Shown here one piece after another: positions 17,498 to 63,929 of a DNA stretch of 64,000 bases. The stretch lies in contig CAMNWO010000003.1 in assembly GCA_946565805.1 (NCBI GenBank), positions 38,814 through 102,813 of the forward strand, read 5' to 3'. The stretch comes from an uncultured Clostridium sp. Lineage in GTDB: Bacteria; Bacillota; Clostridia; TANB77; CAG-508. The notes below the pieces were generated by a model. The model was not told the origin of the DNA, did not search any database, and worked only from the letters and a program-made list of their open reading frames with translations. The position numbers and the translations under genes are program-made. Numbering within the stretch: the first letter of the stretch is position 1; every line of letters starts with the position of its first letter.

Positions 17498-17590
17498 ATG
17501 AGACAGTGGGGACAGTCCTTAACTGTCTCATTTTTTTATTTTTGATATATTTAAAAAATGAGACAGTTAAGGACTGTCCCTACTGTCTCA
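17498..17590. repeat. REPIN-like doublet of the ATGAGACAG-TGGGGACAG-..-CTGTCTCAT element (two inverted copies)
   Basis: Copy 17498..17531 and copy 17558..17590 are reverse complements of each other (2 mismatches), separated by an AT-rich spacer. The doublet lies directly downstream of B1. Confidence 0.85.
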
Positions 17591-17834
17591 CTACGCAAAT
17601 AAGGAGAAGAGAGAAAATAAAAAGAAAATTGTAAAAATTGTAACATAAATGTAGTCAAAACTTAACAGAAAAAGTAGTAAAGCTGAATATGCTAAAATCC
17701 CTAATAAGCAAGAAGACATTGGTAGAATAAACTGGTAAAACAGGAAAAAATTAATATTGCAATCCATAGAAAAACAAAATACAATAGAATTAGTAGAATA
17801 GTCTTTTTTAGTAAAGAAGGGAAAAGGTGAAGAC

Positions 17835-20800
17835 ATGAAAGAAAAAGTTTTAAAAACGCTTATTGTTATATGGATGATAGTTAGTATAACCATAGCACAT
17901 GTCATTGTATTAGCAAGCGACATTGTAAGTTATGCTTTTCAAGATGTGGGAAAAGAGAATATAGAATTTAGTGGCTATTTTGTGAATGAACAAGGAGAAG
18001 AACTATCAAGTATTGAAAAGCCAATTAACAGTGAAGATGTTAAGTTAGCAATAAAAGTAAGAGTGAAAGAACAAGGCTATTTGAACGGAAAAATTGAATT
18101 AAAAAATGAAAGTTTTAAATTCAAGCAAGAGGAAATCGAAGGCGTAGAAGAAATTAAGGACAGAGAAATTACCCTAAAGCAAATTAATGCACAACAAAGC
18201 ATAGAGTTTAAAATTGGATTAGAAATTGATGTACCAAATAGCATTGATACAAACCAATTCAACAAAGACAATTTAATTGCTTTAAAAGGAACATATACAA
18301 CTGCTAATCAAAGCCAAAAAGAAATTAATATGGAACAAAATCTACCAATTACACTTACTAGTCCATATCAAGAAGGTGAAGAAGCAAGTATTCTAGATGC
18401 ACAAATTATTACTAATAAAATTTATAAAATAGGAGAACAAAACAAGAGAATTGTGCAAATGCAGATTAAGAGTGGGCTACAAGCAAATGGTTATCCAATC
18501 AAACAAACAGACTTAGAAATAGAAGCACCAGAAGGGATGGAAGAAGCAACTGTTTTAGCAAGAGGAACAGAAGCAACCAATGGAAGAAATGAATTACAAT
18601 CACAAAGAGAGGAAAATAGATTACAGATACAAATTGCTAACCAAGAAAAAGATGGAAAGATCAACTATGGAAAGCAAAAAGTAGATACTATGATTGTGAC
18701 CTATGTATATGAAGAAGGAAAAGAATTAGCTAATACAGAAATTAAAGTAAAAAATAGAATACAAATTTATGATCAACAAGGAACCACATTTGAAAAAGAA
18801 ATAAGTACAAAAGTAGAAGAAGAAAAAGAAGAAATTATTGCCTATAATATCGTAAACCAAGCAGAATTATATAAAGGAAGACTATATGCAGACGAAGAAC
18901 AAAGTTATAGAAGTATGAGTAAAATCGATATTCGTTATCCACGGAATTGAACAAGCAATCCAAATAACAGAAGGAAATGCTTATTACAATGATGGTTCAG
19001 CAGCTAACAGTGTTTACCAAAAAACTATGGTAGAAAAAGAAGAATTATTAAATGTACTAGGAGAAAATGGTGAATTAGTTATTAAAAGGCTGGATGGAAG
19101 TGAGATTAAAAAGATTACAAAAAATACGGTACAAGAAGAGGAAAATATCGTAAGTATTAACTATGAAGAAGGACAACAAGAAATTCTAGTAGAAATTAAT
19201 TATGCTGAAAGAACAGGGATTCTTAATCTAATGCATGAAAAAGCAATTTTACCACAATATAAGTCAAGAAATGAAATAAAGGAATTGACAGAATTAATAG
19301 TAGAAGGAAATTTACAAGAAACAGAAAATATTGGAGCTAAACAAACAAAAGCTAATATACAATTAAAAGAAACACAAACCAAAGCAGAAGCGGAAATTAG
19401 CAATAGCCAATTCATAGCAGGAAAAACGAATGAAAACATAGAAATCAAAACGACTTTAGTAGCAAATGAAAGTAATTATGACTTATATAAAAATCCAACG
19501 ATAGAAGTACAATTTCCAGAAAAAGTACAAGATGTTACCATTAAAAATGTAAGCTTATTATATGGAGAAGGATTAGCTAAAGAAAAAGAAGAGATATATG
19601 AAAATGAAGCGGGAAGAAAAGTAGCTAGAATCCAATTAGTAGGAGAACAAACCTCTTATGTAGAAACAGAATTAGTAAAAGGAACCAATGTTATTTTAAA
19701 TTGCGATGTAACAGTAGAGAATTTAGAAGAAAATGAAAATCATCGAATTCAAGTTACCTGCACTAATGACAAAGAAGTAGAATATTATAATGAAGGAAAA
19801 AATGAACTAGAAGTTAATTATGTTGTAACAGAAGAAATGAAGCAACAAAATTATGAAAGAGAAATTATAGAAGCAAATGCAGTAGCAACAGCCAATGATC
19901 CAATTACAGTAACAAAAACTGTATCAGCAGGAGATGGTCAAGATATTTATGAAGGACAAGTACAAAAATATACGATTAAAATAAAAAATAACACCAATCA
20001 AACGTATAAAAATATTACTGTAAAAGATGAAATACCAAGTGAATTAGTTTATACAAAAGCAGTTTGTGACGAAGGACTAAGAAATGGGTATCGAGATGAT
20101 AACAACATAACGACAGTAGAATTACAAACACGTGAAATAGAAAAAGAGGAAGAACCAGAACAAACAGAAGAGCCAGAAGAAGATGTAGAACCAAGTGAAG
20201 AAGAGGAAGAAGAAACAACGGAAAATATTAAAGAAGTAGAAGAAATTGATCCACAATTGTTTCAAACCTTGGAACCACATAAAGAAATAGAACTTTGTTA
20301 TTTTGTAAGGGTAAAAAAAGCAGAGGAAAACATCGGGAAAAAGGTAGGAACCAAAGCACAAGTAATCTTACCAGGAGATGAAACAATTTACGAAACCAAT
20401 TTAGTAGAAAACACCATAAGAGAAAGTAAATTGCAAATTGATATGGTAACAACAGCTGATGCGAGATACAAATATGGAAGTGCCAGTACAATAGCCTATA
20501 TCATTAAAATTAAAAATATATCAAATGAAAAGATGACAAATTTAAAAGCTATTAACCAAATACCAGAAGGTATGACTTATAAAAGAGCATCAGATATGAT
20601 ATATAATGAAGAGGACGAGTGTTATATCATTAATGACAGTAATACGCAAAAATTGGCTGATTATAATAGTAGTAGTAAAACGGTTACATGGAAGGTAGGA
20701 GATTTAGAACCACAACAAGAAGTAGCTATTTATCTTGCCCTTAGCTTAACTGGAACAGAATCAACAACACAAAGTATAGCTAATAAAGTAACTGTACAAG

Positions 20801-61705: not shown

Positions 61706-61882
61706 AAAATAAAGAATATAATTTTTTAAAAGTAATCGACAAAAAAAGGTAAGTTTCCGTAAGAAATGCTTGTAACATGCGGATTTGTAATAAAAAAGAC
61801 ATATAAAAAACTATTGAAAAACAAAAACTTATATGTTATAAAATCAATATAAAAAGGAAAACAAACATAAGGAGGAATTATT

Positions 61883-63691
61883 TTGAAAAACGGAATTAAA
61901 ACATTAGCCATGTGGTTAATTATAGGAGTCATCTTTATTGTTGTATTATCATCTATTGTTGAAAATAGTGAATCAAAATTAAAATATTCAGAATTAATTG
62001 CTGATATTAATAGTAGTAAAGTAGAAGCGATTCAAATTGAGGCAGATGGTAAAACAGCAACGGTTACTTTAAAAGATGATAAAATTAAGAAAGAAGTAAA
62101 TATACCAGATATGGAAAGCTTTATGAGCTATTCAGAAGATTTTCTAAAAGATGGAGCATTTACCTTAGAAGAAAAATCACAATCTATCTTTGTTACAGTG
62201 ATTAGCTTGCTTACCCCATTTGGTTTACTAATTATATTCTTTATCTTCTGGTTCTTTATGATGGGCGGAGCAGGACAAGGTGGAGCTGGAAATAAAACGA
62301 TGTCATTTGGAAAAAGTAAAGCAAGAATGATGACACCAGCTGAGAAAAACAAAATCACATTTGAAGATGTAGCAGGTGTAGACGAAGAAAAAGAAGAATT
62401 AGAAGAAATTGTACAATTCTTAAAAAATCCAAAGAAGTTTACGGATATGGGAGCTAGAATTCCAAAAGGTGTTTTATTAGTAGGTCAACCAGGAACAGGT
62501 AAAACATTATTGGCTAAAGCAGTAGCAGGAGAAGCAGGTGTGCCATTCTTTATTATTAGTGGTTCAGACTTTGTTGAAATGTTTGTAGGTGTTGGTGCTT
62601 CTAGAGTAAGAGACTTATTTGACCAAGCTAAGAAAAATGCACCATGTATTATCTTCATTGATGAAATTGATGCTGTTGGACGTCAAAGAGGTGCAGGACT
62701 TGGTGGAGGGCATGACGAAAGAGAACAAACCCTAAACCAATTATTAGTAGAGATGGATGGATTTGCAGAAAATGAGGGAGTTATCGTATTAGCAGCAACT
62801 AATAGACCAGATGTATTAGATAAAGCGTTATTAAGAGCTGGAAGATTTGACAGACAAATTGTGGTAGGATTACCAGATGTAAAAGCAAGAGAACAAATTT
62901 TAGAAGTACATTCAAGAAAGAAACACTTATCAGATGATGTAGACCTAAAAGTAGTAGCAAAAAACACATCAGGATTTGCGGGTGCAGACTTAGAAAATGT
63001 TTTAAATGAAGCAGCTTTATTAGCAGCAAGAAGAAACATGACAGAAATTGGAATGAAGGAAATAGAAGATGCTATGGTTAAAGTAACCATGGGACCTGAA
63101 AAGAAAACAAAAGTAAGAAGTGAAAAAGAAAATAAATTAGTAGCTTATCATGAAGCTGGTCATGCTGTAGTTAGCCATTACTTAGAGACACAAGACCCAG
63201 TGCATCAGATATCAATTGTACCAAGAGGAATGGCTGGTGGATATACAATGTATCGACCAACAGAAGATAAATCATTCATGTCAAAAACAGAAATGGAAGA
63301 AAATATCGTATCACTTCTTGGAGGAAGAGTTGCAGAAGCTTTAATTTTAAACGATATTTCAACAGGAGCAAGCAATGATATTGAAAGAGCAACAAAAATT
63401 GCAAGAAGTATGGTAACGAAATATGGAATGAGCGAAAGAATAGGAACTATTATGCTAGGTGCAAACCAAGAAGAAGTATTTTTAGGAAGAGACTTAGCAC
63501 AAAGTAAAGAATATTCAGAAGAAACAGCAGCTATTGTAGATGAAGAGACCAAAAGAATTGTAGATACTGGATATAATAGAGCAAAACAAATTTTATCGGA
63601 TAATATTGATAAATTACACCAAGTAGCAGGAATATTACTAGAAAAAGAAAAAATCGAAGCAGATGAATTTGAAGCTATATTTGGAGAATGA
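61883..63691 (+). CDS. ftsH: ATP-dependent zinc metalloprotease FtsH
   Basis: TTG start after AAGGAGG, two TM helices, [35 protein letters not shown] and HEAGHA. The TGA stop lies inside a repeat copy. Confidence 0.97.
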
Positions 63692-63929
63692 GACGGTGGG
63701 GACAGGTCTTAACTGTCTCATTTTTTATATTATAGGAAAGTTCTCCGAACTTCCTATAATATAAATACATTCCACAGAAAATTGCTTTGCAATTTTCGCG
63801 GGCGAACAATTACGTGGGCTGAACTTTATATATAAAAAGGTAGCAAATATTAATCAGCCCACTATTGTTCGTAGAAATTATTTTATTTAAGAATAAATGA
63901 GACAGTTAAGACCTGTCCCCTCTGTCTCA
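63688..63929. repeat. Wide REPIN-like doublet (copies 63688..63721 and 63897..63929) enclosing three further nested hairpins
   Basis: ATGAGACGGTGGGGACAGGTCTTAACTGTCTCAT and an inverted copy ATGAGACAGTTAAGACCTGTCCCCTCTGTCTCA. Internal hairpins lie at 63727..63762, 63777..63797 and 63803..63871. Confidence 0.8.

Follow-up and report, generated by a model that had tools for sequence, protein, structure and literature searches.

The stretch of DNA considered here, hereafter the window, comprises 64,000 nucleotides of a draft genome from an uncultured Clostridium sp. (G000:C3:38814-102813; the host genome G000 has 1.59 Mb, 30% GC and 32 contigs). Its genes include dnaB, tilS, rpoB, rpoC and ftsH, together with a gene for a transposase of the Y1 type between dnaB and tilS, and it holds short palindromic repeats of several families (Table 1). 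A preliminary description had listed copies of one palindrome at 17498 and 17558, 32830, 34109 and 34182, 41725, and 63688 and 63897; all of these are present, the arms of the pair at 34109 and 34182 (34110-34214) are indeed exact reverse complements, and the copies are intergenic or overlap only stop or last codons, as had been said. We call this palindrome family 1 (F1), with the unit TGAGACAGTGGGGACAGGTCTTAACTGTCTCATTT; four other families in the window (F2, F3, F4 and F5) had not been separated from it. With considerable confidence, we read F1 as a non-autonomous hairpin population of the repetitive extragenic palindrome (REP) type, whose inverted doublets are known as REPINs, and as one of five co-resident systems that each join a repeat family to a Y1 transposase. 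Judged from the repeats that flank it, the most likely cognate enzyme of F1 is an HUH-tyrosine protein of the RAYT/TIRYT class (RAYT, REP-associated tyrosine transposase) encoded at C31:224-982, outside the window.

A profile search of the genome with nhmmer finds 200 F1 units at 106 loci, which means that the motif is by no means confined to the window. Within the window the word GAGACAGNNNGGGAC, with at most one mismatch, matches 4 times against 0.10 expected, and across G000 there are 36 occurrences of TGAGACAGTGGGGACAG (approximately 0 expected) and 150 of GGGGACAG (4.4 expected). The consensus TGAGACAGTGGGGACAGGTCTTAACTGTCTCATTTT was derived from 93 exact-register seeds, across which TGAGA, GGGACAG, CT and TGTCTCA are invariant and after which a T-run follows, the invariance of GAGA, GGGACAG and GTCTCA being built into the seed pattern. 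The unit is 35 nt long and consists of a 7–9-bp stem, (T)GAGACAG / CTGTCTC(A), around a loop of about 14 nt that contains GGGGACAG; GAGACA and GGGGACAG stand 2 nt apart, in place of the 2–3 nt of the motif GAGACAG(N2-3)GGGAC first proposed. As single-stranded DNA the unit folds into a 9-bp stem with a 14-nt loop bearing GGGGACAGGTCTTA, and as RNA it gains an extra apical mini-stem (−15 to −18 kcal/mol) followed by a U-run, with T in 83–87 of the 93 units at three positions past the stem. Positions 13-14 and 29-30 show no co-variation within single units, so only 6–7 bp of the stem are conserved. F1 has the shortness and the extragenic, multicopy distribution of REP sequences (imperfect palindromes of 20–40 nt), with 3 of 94 scored loci intragenic by our own calls of open reading frames (ORFs; at least 100 aa, 85% coding). 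The palindrome starts with neither a GTAG nor a CGTC tag, and the invariant block is instead the loop GGGGACAG. Several contigs of G000 terminate in F1 repeats, from which it follows that these repeats break assemblies.

The units are arranged mostly as inverted pairs. At 64 of the 106 loci we find a '+-' pair with the GGGGACAG end outward, in keeping with the head-to-head geometry that had been likened to REPINs, while single units occupy 36 loci and about 12 loci carry extra partial units in symmetric nesting ('++--'); the only '-+' cluster is a weak 8-bit match that overlaps a single unit. The doublets fall into a main class of 102–110 bp (about 105 bp, with an AT-rich spacer of 31–38 nt) and a minor one of 82–93 bp, and the RNA of a whole doublet forms a single hairpin (−66 to −73 kcal/mol). 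The two arms of a doublet differ on average at 0.6 of 35 nt versus 5.6 between loci; 32 of 56 doublets show no difference at all, and 46 distinct arm variants occur among the 56. This complementarity is the symmetry signature described for REPINs, so that inverted pairing, a single long hairpin and maintained arm symmetry are all found in F1. Target-site duplications were not seen at the 56 doublets, of which 5 have identical flanks over 2 nt and 2 over 4 nt, and at no doublet does the identity extend to 5 nt or beyond. The flanks are inverted-complementary, prolonging the palindrome, in 30 of the 56 doublets at 4 nt and in 19 at 8 nt, often because the element sits inside an older or different unit. 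Clustering of the spacers (single-linkage, 70%) lumped almost all together owing to their AT-richness, and the two spacer types that we recognize were distinguished by eye only.

The association of these repeats with transposase genes emerges from a search for PF01797, which matches at seven places in G000: one typical IS200 TnpA (on C4, 135 bits), one fragment, and five proteins of 243–272 aa. The five find their best family in NF047646 (REP-associated tyrosine transposase, 51–78 bits), match IS200 weakly, and share invariant NHVH and YIHxNP motifs. A helix-turn-helix (HTH) domain of the HTH_23 type is detected in the C2b paralogue at 25.4 bits (cut-off 24.6), with a weak HTH_28 match, and the other paralogues give weak HTH hints; the combination of a longer Y1 protein with a C-terminal domain resembling HTH_23, HTH_28 or Bac_DnaA_C that marks the TIRYTs is therefore present. 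When 500 nt on either side of each gene are compared with the genome by blast, each of the five genes proves to be bracketed by its own multicopy family, and the five families together amount to approximately 410 units, 17.4 kb or 1.1% of the genome. The typical IS200 TnpA has no flanking units of F1–F5. F1 units lie upstream of the gene at C31:224-982 (at 1-79) and 5 nt past its stop (at 985-1019), so that it is the low-copy Y1 gene flanked by units of F1, a place that the gene in the window does not take.

The Y1 gene in the window had been noted at the outset as RAYT-like, and this classification is probably right, while its implied pairing with F1 does not hold. The protein matches PF01797 with 45 bits and NF047646 with 60.7 bits (cut-off 80) and is 39% identical to the C31 protein. 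Its AlphaFold2 model has a mean pLDDT of 87 and a pTM of 0.80, with a C-terminal five-helix bundle above pLDDT 90, and Foldseek ranks the complex of E. coli TnpA_REP with a REP hairpin first (4er8, E 4.5e-7, TM 0.70 on the target), followed by the TnpA proteins of IS608 and ISDra2; a sequence search of the PDB with the C31 protein gives an E of about 0.4 only. Since the flanks of the window gene (59773-59809 and 60832-60862) are F5, the gene is, on this positional evidence, the cognate of F5 and not of F1.

Relatives allow the pairing of gene and repeat to be followed beyond one genome. RAYT-like proteins are encoded by 18 of 24 sampled congeners (1–6 copies per genome), and of four further families in the order three have them; a species-representative collection holds more than 570 stretches with relatives of the RAYT-like protein, mostly from Bacillota, and the nearest relatives are gut metagenome-assembled genomes (MAGs) labelled 'uncultured Clostridium sp.'. 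The C31-type gene precedes the same comFC-like gene in G007 and G017, and the window-type gene lies between dnaB and tilS in G014, G021 and G024. Units of the type TGAGACA..GGGAC..TGTCTCA adjoin the C31 orthologues of G050, G073, G007, G017 and MAG L027 (81%, 64%, 59%, 49% and 49% identical, respectively, the last value over the best aligned segment), and a different loop, CACTGGTTCCGGGTTT, is found beside window-type genes, including those of G014, G021, G024 and Clostridium sp. CAG:440. Matches to the strict F1 pattern are nearly confined to this species, with 114 in G000, 3 in G005, 1 in G021 and none in the others of 40 relatives. A looser pattern (TGAGAC-N3-5-GGGAC) is found 179 times in G000, which carries the query gene itself, 103 times in G050, 40 times in G073, 18 times in G007 and 10 times in G017, the last four of which have a C31 orthologue, and only 1, 1 and 0 times in G006, G005 and G001, which have no C31-type gene. 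F1 copy number therefore tracks the orthologous Y1 gene across congeners.

The position of F1 relative to genes is strongly biased. In same-strand gene pairs the median distance is 10 nt to the upstream stop versus 117 nt to the next start, and F1 is nearer to the stop at 43 loci and nearer to the start at 10 (p 5.6e-6). Single units that abut a stop are co-oriented with that gene in a ratio of 13:2, and the terminal TGA of the element is itself the stop codon at 15 of 94 loci. F3 and F5 share this behavior, and F2 and F4 do so less. F1 has the features of an intrinsic terminator, namely a stable hairpin with a U-run directly after it, lying downstream of a gene and oriented with it, and because of this arrangement each unit probably serves also as a terminator or 3'-end stabilizer. 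A simple terminator scan flags the F2 arms; that F1 escapes it is due solely to the limit of 8 nt that it sets on loops.

F1 sites differ between strains and between species. For strains we used assemblies from other samples that encode an identical neighboring protein, and several structural alleles are seen at three F1 loci. The ACPS locus (34110 in the window) carries the doublet, a lone right '-' arm (L113) or a different lone '+' unit (L109, L114); the dUTPase locus carries the doublet or, with identical ends, a mini-hairpin of 23 nt, TGAGACAAGGGGGACAGGTCTCA; and the Dtd locus has the alleles '++--', '+--', '+++' and a collapsed form. We take these alleles as a sign of rapid turnover rather than of transposition, because they can be derived by deletion between internal direct repeats. 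Three further look-ups by neighboring protein yielded neither a new allele nor an empty site: those by the 371-aa neighbor of the 17499 doublet and by RlmH led to contigs that end at the repeat, and that by DUF1836 led mostly to such contigs and to three that span the intergenic region with a G000-like spacing of 131–137 nt.

Between species the site after ftsH varies: it is empty with a native TAA stop in G073 and G002, and it holds an F5-type unit in G059, units of another GGGAC family in G006, a single F1 unit in G050 and a wide F1 doublet in G000. In both F1 cases (G000 and G050) the ftsH stop codon is the TGA of the element. The C-terminus of FtsH reads ...IFGE in G000, G050, G059 and G006, and ...FGKE and ...FNA in the two genomes with an empty site; ...IFGE is also found in congeners that lack an F1 unit and end the gene with a native TAA or TAG. 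The sequences look as if the F1 element had entered between T and AA of TAA.

Taken together, these observations suggest a mechanism in which catalysis by the C31 protein, a single-strand mode of action, the exact cleavage site and termination are inferred from sequence. The C31 protein would recognize the F1 hairpin and its GGGGAC loop on single-stranded DNA and would cut and rejoin F1 without target duplication. New copies would enter at or just past stop codons, often between T and AA of TAA with the result that the TGA of the element becomes the stop, and they may also enter the centers of existing palindromes. Once placed, the hairpin and its U-run would act as an intrinsic terminator or 3'-end stabilizer.

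Several points weigh against reading F1 as a repeat population driven by a Y1 enzyme. Transposition, cleavage and transcript ends of F1 are deduced rather than observed, and all of the strain variants could arise by slippage or recombination between internal direct repeats with no transposase involved; a fully empty F1 site was not found within the species. Two genomes, G057 and G059, contain F1-like units (42 and 26) with no C31 orthologue detected, at 81% and 77% completeness, respectively. The NF047646 scores of the five proteins (51–78 bits) lie under the curated cut-off of 80 bits. The upstream F1 units of the C31 gene stand at a contig end, which puts the full arrangement on that side out of view; G000 is a draft of 32 contigs with 2.6% contamination; and the gene context of F1 depends on our own crude ORF calls.

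Among other explanations, the elements could be sites with a host function, bound by the HTH tail of the RAYT proteins or by nucleoid or topology proteins, or active in RNA stability, and kept by selection rather than by selfish spread. That the RAYT genes are single-copy, syntenic and vertically inherited with an added HTH domain speaks for this, as do the maintained symmetry of the F1 doublets and the repeat copies within operons (in the rpoB-rpoC spacer and in frame in tilS). We nevertheless consider it unlikely, since copy numbers differ approximately 10- to 100-fold between congeners and families replace each other at a given site, a turnover that fits these data better than a fixed host function does.

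The terminator-like fold and U-run of F1, its location just past stops and its co-orientation with the upstream gene would also be expected if F1 consisted of ordinary terminators that have grown similar or have been spread by recombination or gene conversion, with the transposase idle and the repeats relics. The derivation of all strain variants by deletion between internal direct repeats agrees with such a history, and REPINs are known to duplicate very slowly (bioRxiv 10.1101/2021.07.10.451892). Independent terminators would not, however, be expected to yield some 200 nearly identical copies in which the spacer and the doublet layout are conserved; the same site carries different families in different species and is empty in others; the copy number follows the orthologous Y1 gene across species; and the Y1 genes are intact and conserved in position. 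We therefore regard this explanation as improbable.

We give little credence to the proposal that the RAYT-like gene of the window (59896-60627) mobilizes F1. Its product is probably a genuine member of the RAYT class, it resembles the C31 protein to the extent given above and is encoded 3 kb from F1 copies, and recognition of F1 by a paralogue is compatible with the sequence data, but its flanks are F5, the CACTGGTTCCGGGTTT loop stands on the flanks of its syntenic orthologues (G014, G021, G024 and Clostridium sp. CAG:440), and F1-like units flank a different orthologous group. Finally, the perfect terminal inverted repeats (TIRs) of the doublets, their length of about 105 bp and their invariant T...A ends recall miniature inverted-repeat transposable elements (MITEs) of a DDE-type insertion sequence with double-stranded TIR recognition, such as a TA-targeting IS630/mariner-like element, a reading that we reject as very improbable because target-site duplications are absent (identical 2-nt flanks at 5 of 56, none at 5 nt or more), and against which it also counts that the only gene found bracketed by F1 units is a Y1 gene (the genome was not surveyed for DDE transposases) and that single and partial tandem units, which a TIR-pair mechanism does not yield, are common.

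A REP/REPIN-type system with a Y1 enzyme, as we understand F1, has its best-studied counterparts in Proteobacteria, in E. coli TnpA_REP with its REP and BIME (bacterial interspersed mosaic element) sequences and in the REPINs of Pseudomonas (Nunvar 2010; Bertels and Rainey 2011, PMC3116915; PMC3337134; Ton-Hoang 2012; Messing 2012, PDB 4er8). In common with these, the repeats of G000 are short extragenic palindromes that number in the tens to hundreds and form inverted doublets able to fold into one long hairpin, and the HUH-Tyr gene is single-copy with its own repeats on its flanks; vertical inheritance, a location 3' of genes and the presence of several systems in one genome are likewise shared. 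Unlike the proteobacterial REPs, F1 has no GTAG at its 5' foot and has a conserved GGGGACAG in its loop, and unlike the proteobacterial RAYTs the proteins here have 243–272 aa and a C-terminal HTH-like tail. The host also differs, being a low-GC gut member of the Clostridia in which the units are AT-flanked and look like canonical terminators.

A closer match is the class of RAYT-like genes named TIRYTs, or 'TIRtrons' with their repeats, whose flanking inverted repeats share GGGGWSAS and for some of which dispersed families of moderate abundance, in dimers or clusters, are described (Di Nocera 2013, PMC3733652). TIRYTs are longer than RAYTs, have a C-terminus of the HTH_23, HTH_28 or DnaA_C-like kind, and correspond to TnpA_REP subclass 2.1 and RAYT group 1; REP-like hairpins were not found beside subclass 2.1 genes (Quentin 2018, PMC6006769). 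RAYT group 1 is reported from Clostridia as well, with flanking 16-mers in only some 12 copies (Bertels 2017, PMC5581495). The five proteins of G000 fit this class, an assignment made by traits and not by the published subclass profiles, because GGGGACAG conforms to GGGGWSAS and one of the paralogues scores above the cut-off of HTH_23. In contrast to the published group 1 and subclass 2.1 cases, all five genes here have a true hairpin family of 33–200 units with REPIN-type doublets, and in contrast to the published TIRYTs the GGGGWSAS-type motif lies in the hairpin loop and five systems co-exist in one genome.

With the IS200/IS605 insertion sequences (IS608, ISDra2) the systems share the Y1 HUH fold, subterminal hairpins, the lack of target duplication and a presumed single-strand transposition, and they differ from them in that F1 elements carry no gene and the RAYT-like genes are single-copy and syntenic. 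Low-GC Gram-positive bacteria are also host to other intergenic, structured, multicopy repeats, BOX, RUP and SPRITE in Streptococcus pneumoniae and bcr in Bacillus cereus, of which RUP probably uses an IS630-type transposase and none is known to be linked to a RAYT-type gene; F1 resembles them in being intergenic, structured and multicopy, a comparison made by description only. We found no description of REPIN or RAYT populations in Firmicutes in the searchable literature, which agrees with the earlier remark that so dense a REPIN-like population is uncommon in Clostridia, although the class itself was described in 2013–2018. The kind of system is thus already known, and what differs from published cases is the mostly paired hairpin populations, the number of systems and the gut Clostridia host.

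The conserved loop recurs beyond the genus. Of 62 RAYT loci taken from diverse Bacillota, 41 have GGGAC in their flanking inverted repeats, versus 8 for a control word. The strict form GGGGWSAS, which F1 shows in its GGGGACAG, occurs in 6 of these 62 flanking repeats, the commonest form being GGGGACGGTTCT in the arrangement stem-GGGGACGGTTCT-stem. The 12-mer GGGGACGGTYCT is found in 20–136 copies in five unrelated Bacillota genomes with RAYT-like genes, as compared to 0–3 for the reversed control. Across 41 relatives the count of GGGGACRG rises with the number of RAYT-like genes (Spearman rho 0.70; median 25 with a gene vs. 4 without), and these statistics are overstated because the relatives are not independent. 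Together with the TGA stop at 15 loci, these counts support a broader proposal which we advance tentatively and hold to be somewhat short of probable: hairpins with a GGGGAC loop may form a third large REP superfamily across Bacillota, beside those tagged with GTAG and CGTC and mobilized by RAYT group 1 / subclass 2.1 enzymes, in which the loop, in place of a 5' tag, would be the recognition element and co-evolve with each enzyme lineage, and precise insertion at stop codons would make the units portable 'stop codon plus terminator' modules.

Two genomes deserve separate mention. G029, from another family of the same order, has 140 occurrences of GGGGACRG versus 28 of the control with no match to the C31 protein, and here the enzyme may be divergent or lost, or the motif may have another source. 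In G079 (Oribacterium sp. NK2B42, which holds L064), GGGGACGGTTCT occurs 136 times, mostly in tight inverted pairs of the form ...GGGGACGGTTCTCGCCGGCGAGAACCGTCCCC... with 20 nt from start to start and 8 nt separating the 12-mers, a geometry much more compact than that of F1.

REPIN-RAYT systems have been studied almost only in Proteobacteria, and G000 provides a compact counter-example to a class reported to lack REP hairpins, with five paralogues, each with its own hairpin family, in 1.6 Mb. Close relatives range from 0 to approximately 100 F1 copies, and strain-level structural alleles are visible in public assemblies. Two questions become testable in a Gram-positive setting: how a Y1 enzyme chooses its hairpin, given a conserved loop and a variable stem, and whether the repeats are selfish, domesticated or both. 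For annotation, the units explain contig breaks, odd TGA stops, in-frame inserts (tilS) and many predicted terminators in this lineage.

Table 1. Repeat units of the window and the five RAYT-like genes of G000 with the families that flank them (contig given for genes outside the window).
Feature	Position	Strand	Remarks
F1 inverted doublet	17499..17590		arms 17499-17533 (+) and 17556-17590 (-); nhmmer 46 and 44 bits; 92 bp, 22-nt spacer; begins 5 nt past stop of 1325-aa gene; RNA: 38-bp hairpin, -66.4 kcal/mol, z -17
F3 unit	26771..26818	+	58 bits; 6 nt past stop codon
Diverged single F1-like unit TTGAGACAAAAAGGGACTGTCCCTAAGTGTCTCAA	32828..32862	-	nhmmer 15 bits; between two + strand genes; fold -17.1 kcal/mol; no change in other strains' contigs
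F1 doublet	34110..34214	.	105 bp; arms exact reverse complements; -73.2 kcal/mol; first TGA is stop codon of upstream 410-aa gene
F2 doublet CGATGTTTTTTGGGACGGGGTCAAAAAACATCG	40842..40954	.	both arms terminator-like
Half F1 unit, model positions 1-19	41726..41744	+	15 bits; fused to F4 unit
F4 unit TTGTCGTAATTTGGGACAGGCAC...	41759..41794	-	43 bits
F3 unit	47804..47850	-	60 bits; rpoB-rpoC spacer, just upstream of rpoC start
F5 unit TTGCCACTTGCCACTGGTTCCGGGTTTGTTTGGCAACTT	59773..59809	+	directly past dnaB stop; left flank of window RAYT gene; 16 blast copies
Probable RAYT-class Y1 (HUH plus Tyr) transposase gene, flanked by F5	59896..60627	+	between dnaB and tilS; C-terminal helical HTH-like tail; F5: 51 units / 33 loci
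Degenerate F5 unit	60832..60862	-	14 bits; right flank of window RAYT gene; in frame inside tilS ORF (60680-61705)
Wide F1 doublet, left arm	63689..63723	+	own TGA is ftsH stop codon
Wide-doublet spacer	63724..63885	.	holds three-hairpin insert of ~150 nt, z -10
Wide F1 doublet, right arm	63895..63929	-	46 bits; missing in closest congener G050 (single unit there)
RAYT-like gene, flanked by F1	C31:224-982		F1: 200 units / 106 loci
RAYT-like gene (C8), flanked by F2	C8:56765-57535		F2: 67 units / 45 loci
RAYT-like gene (C2a), flanked by F3	C2:65595-66404		F3: 59 units / 48 loci
RAYT-like gene (C2b), flanked by F4	C2:94520-95335		F4: 33 units / 21 loci

Two further hairpins of the window, at 4878-4955 and 47629-47661, had been taken as related to F1; each is unique in G000, and we do not count them as family members. 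The first is a 78-nt palindrome (AAAGTGTC...GACACTTT) upstream of a 704-aa gene and has GGGGGGACC on its minus strand, and the second lies just past rpoB.

Some F1 copies are parts of larger arrangements. At the dUTPase site (C2:12020-12124; L128-L131) the F1 doublet or the mini-hairpin stands exactly at the loop position of an outer F2-like stem (GCAGATGTTTT / AAAACATCTGC), and similar composites with GATGATTTTGGAGACGGAGGAG flanks are found at C4:7430, C3:104328, C4:24359 and C3:8291; their layout suggests that one family is nested in another or that they are composite mobile units. At C14:44119-46326 single '+' and '-' F1 units 2.1 kb apart enclose two ORFs on the '-' strand (44226-44576 and 44573-46066), which may be cargo bounded by repeats or a doublet that inserted DNA has split.

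Scanned with Rfam at gathering thresholds, the window gave no match, and an E-value scan of 63650-64000 assigned the three-hairpin insert of the wide doublet to no Rfam family, its matches lying far below gathering scores. The insert is itself a repeat in the genus, with copies 80–89% identical at several loci per genome in many congeners and partial copies in G000 at C19:10881-10929 (a wider match to 11008 includes an adjacent F1 unit) and C23:5502-5554, and it could represent a small RNA or a further mobile element. In G000, G014 and G021 the in-frame F5 units of tilS fall between SGGPDS and VAHVNH, within the variable loop near the N-terminus of the protein. In G024 the array gives an in-frame TGA with an ATG two codons on, which would correspond to a split gene or an assembly error (tilS loci L022, L023 and L024).

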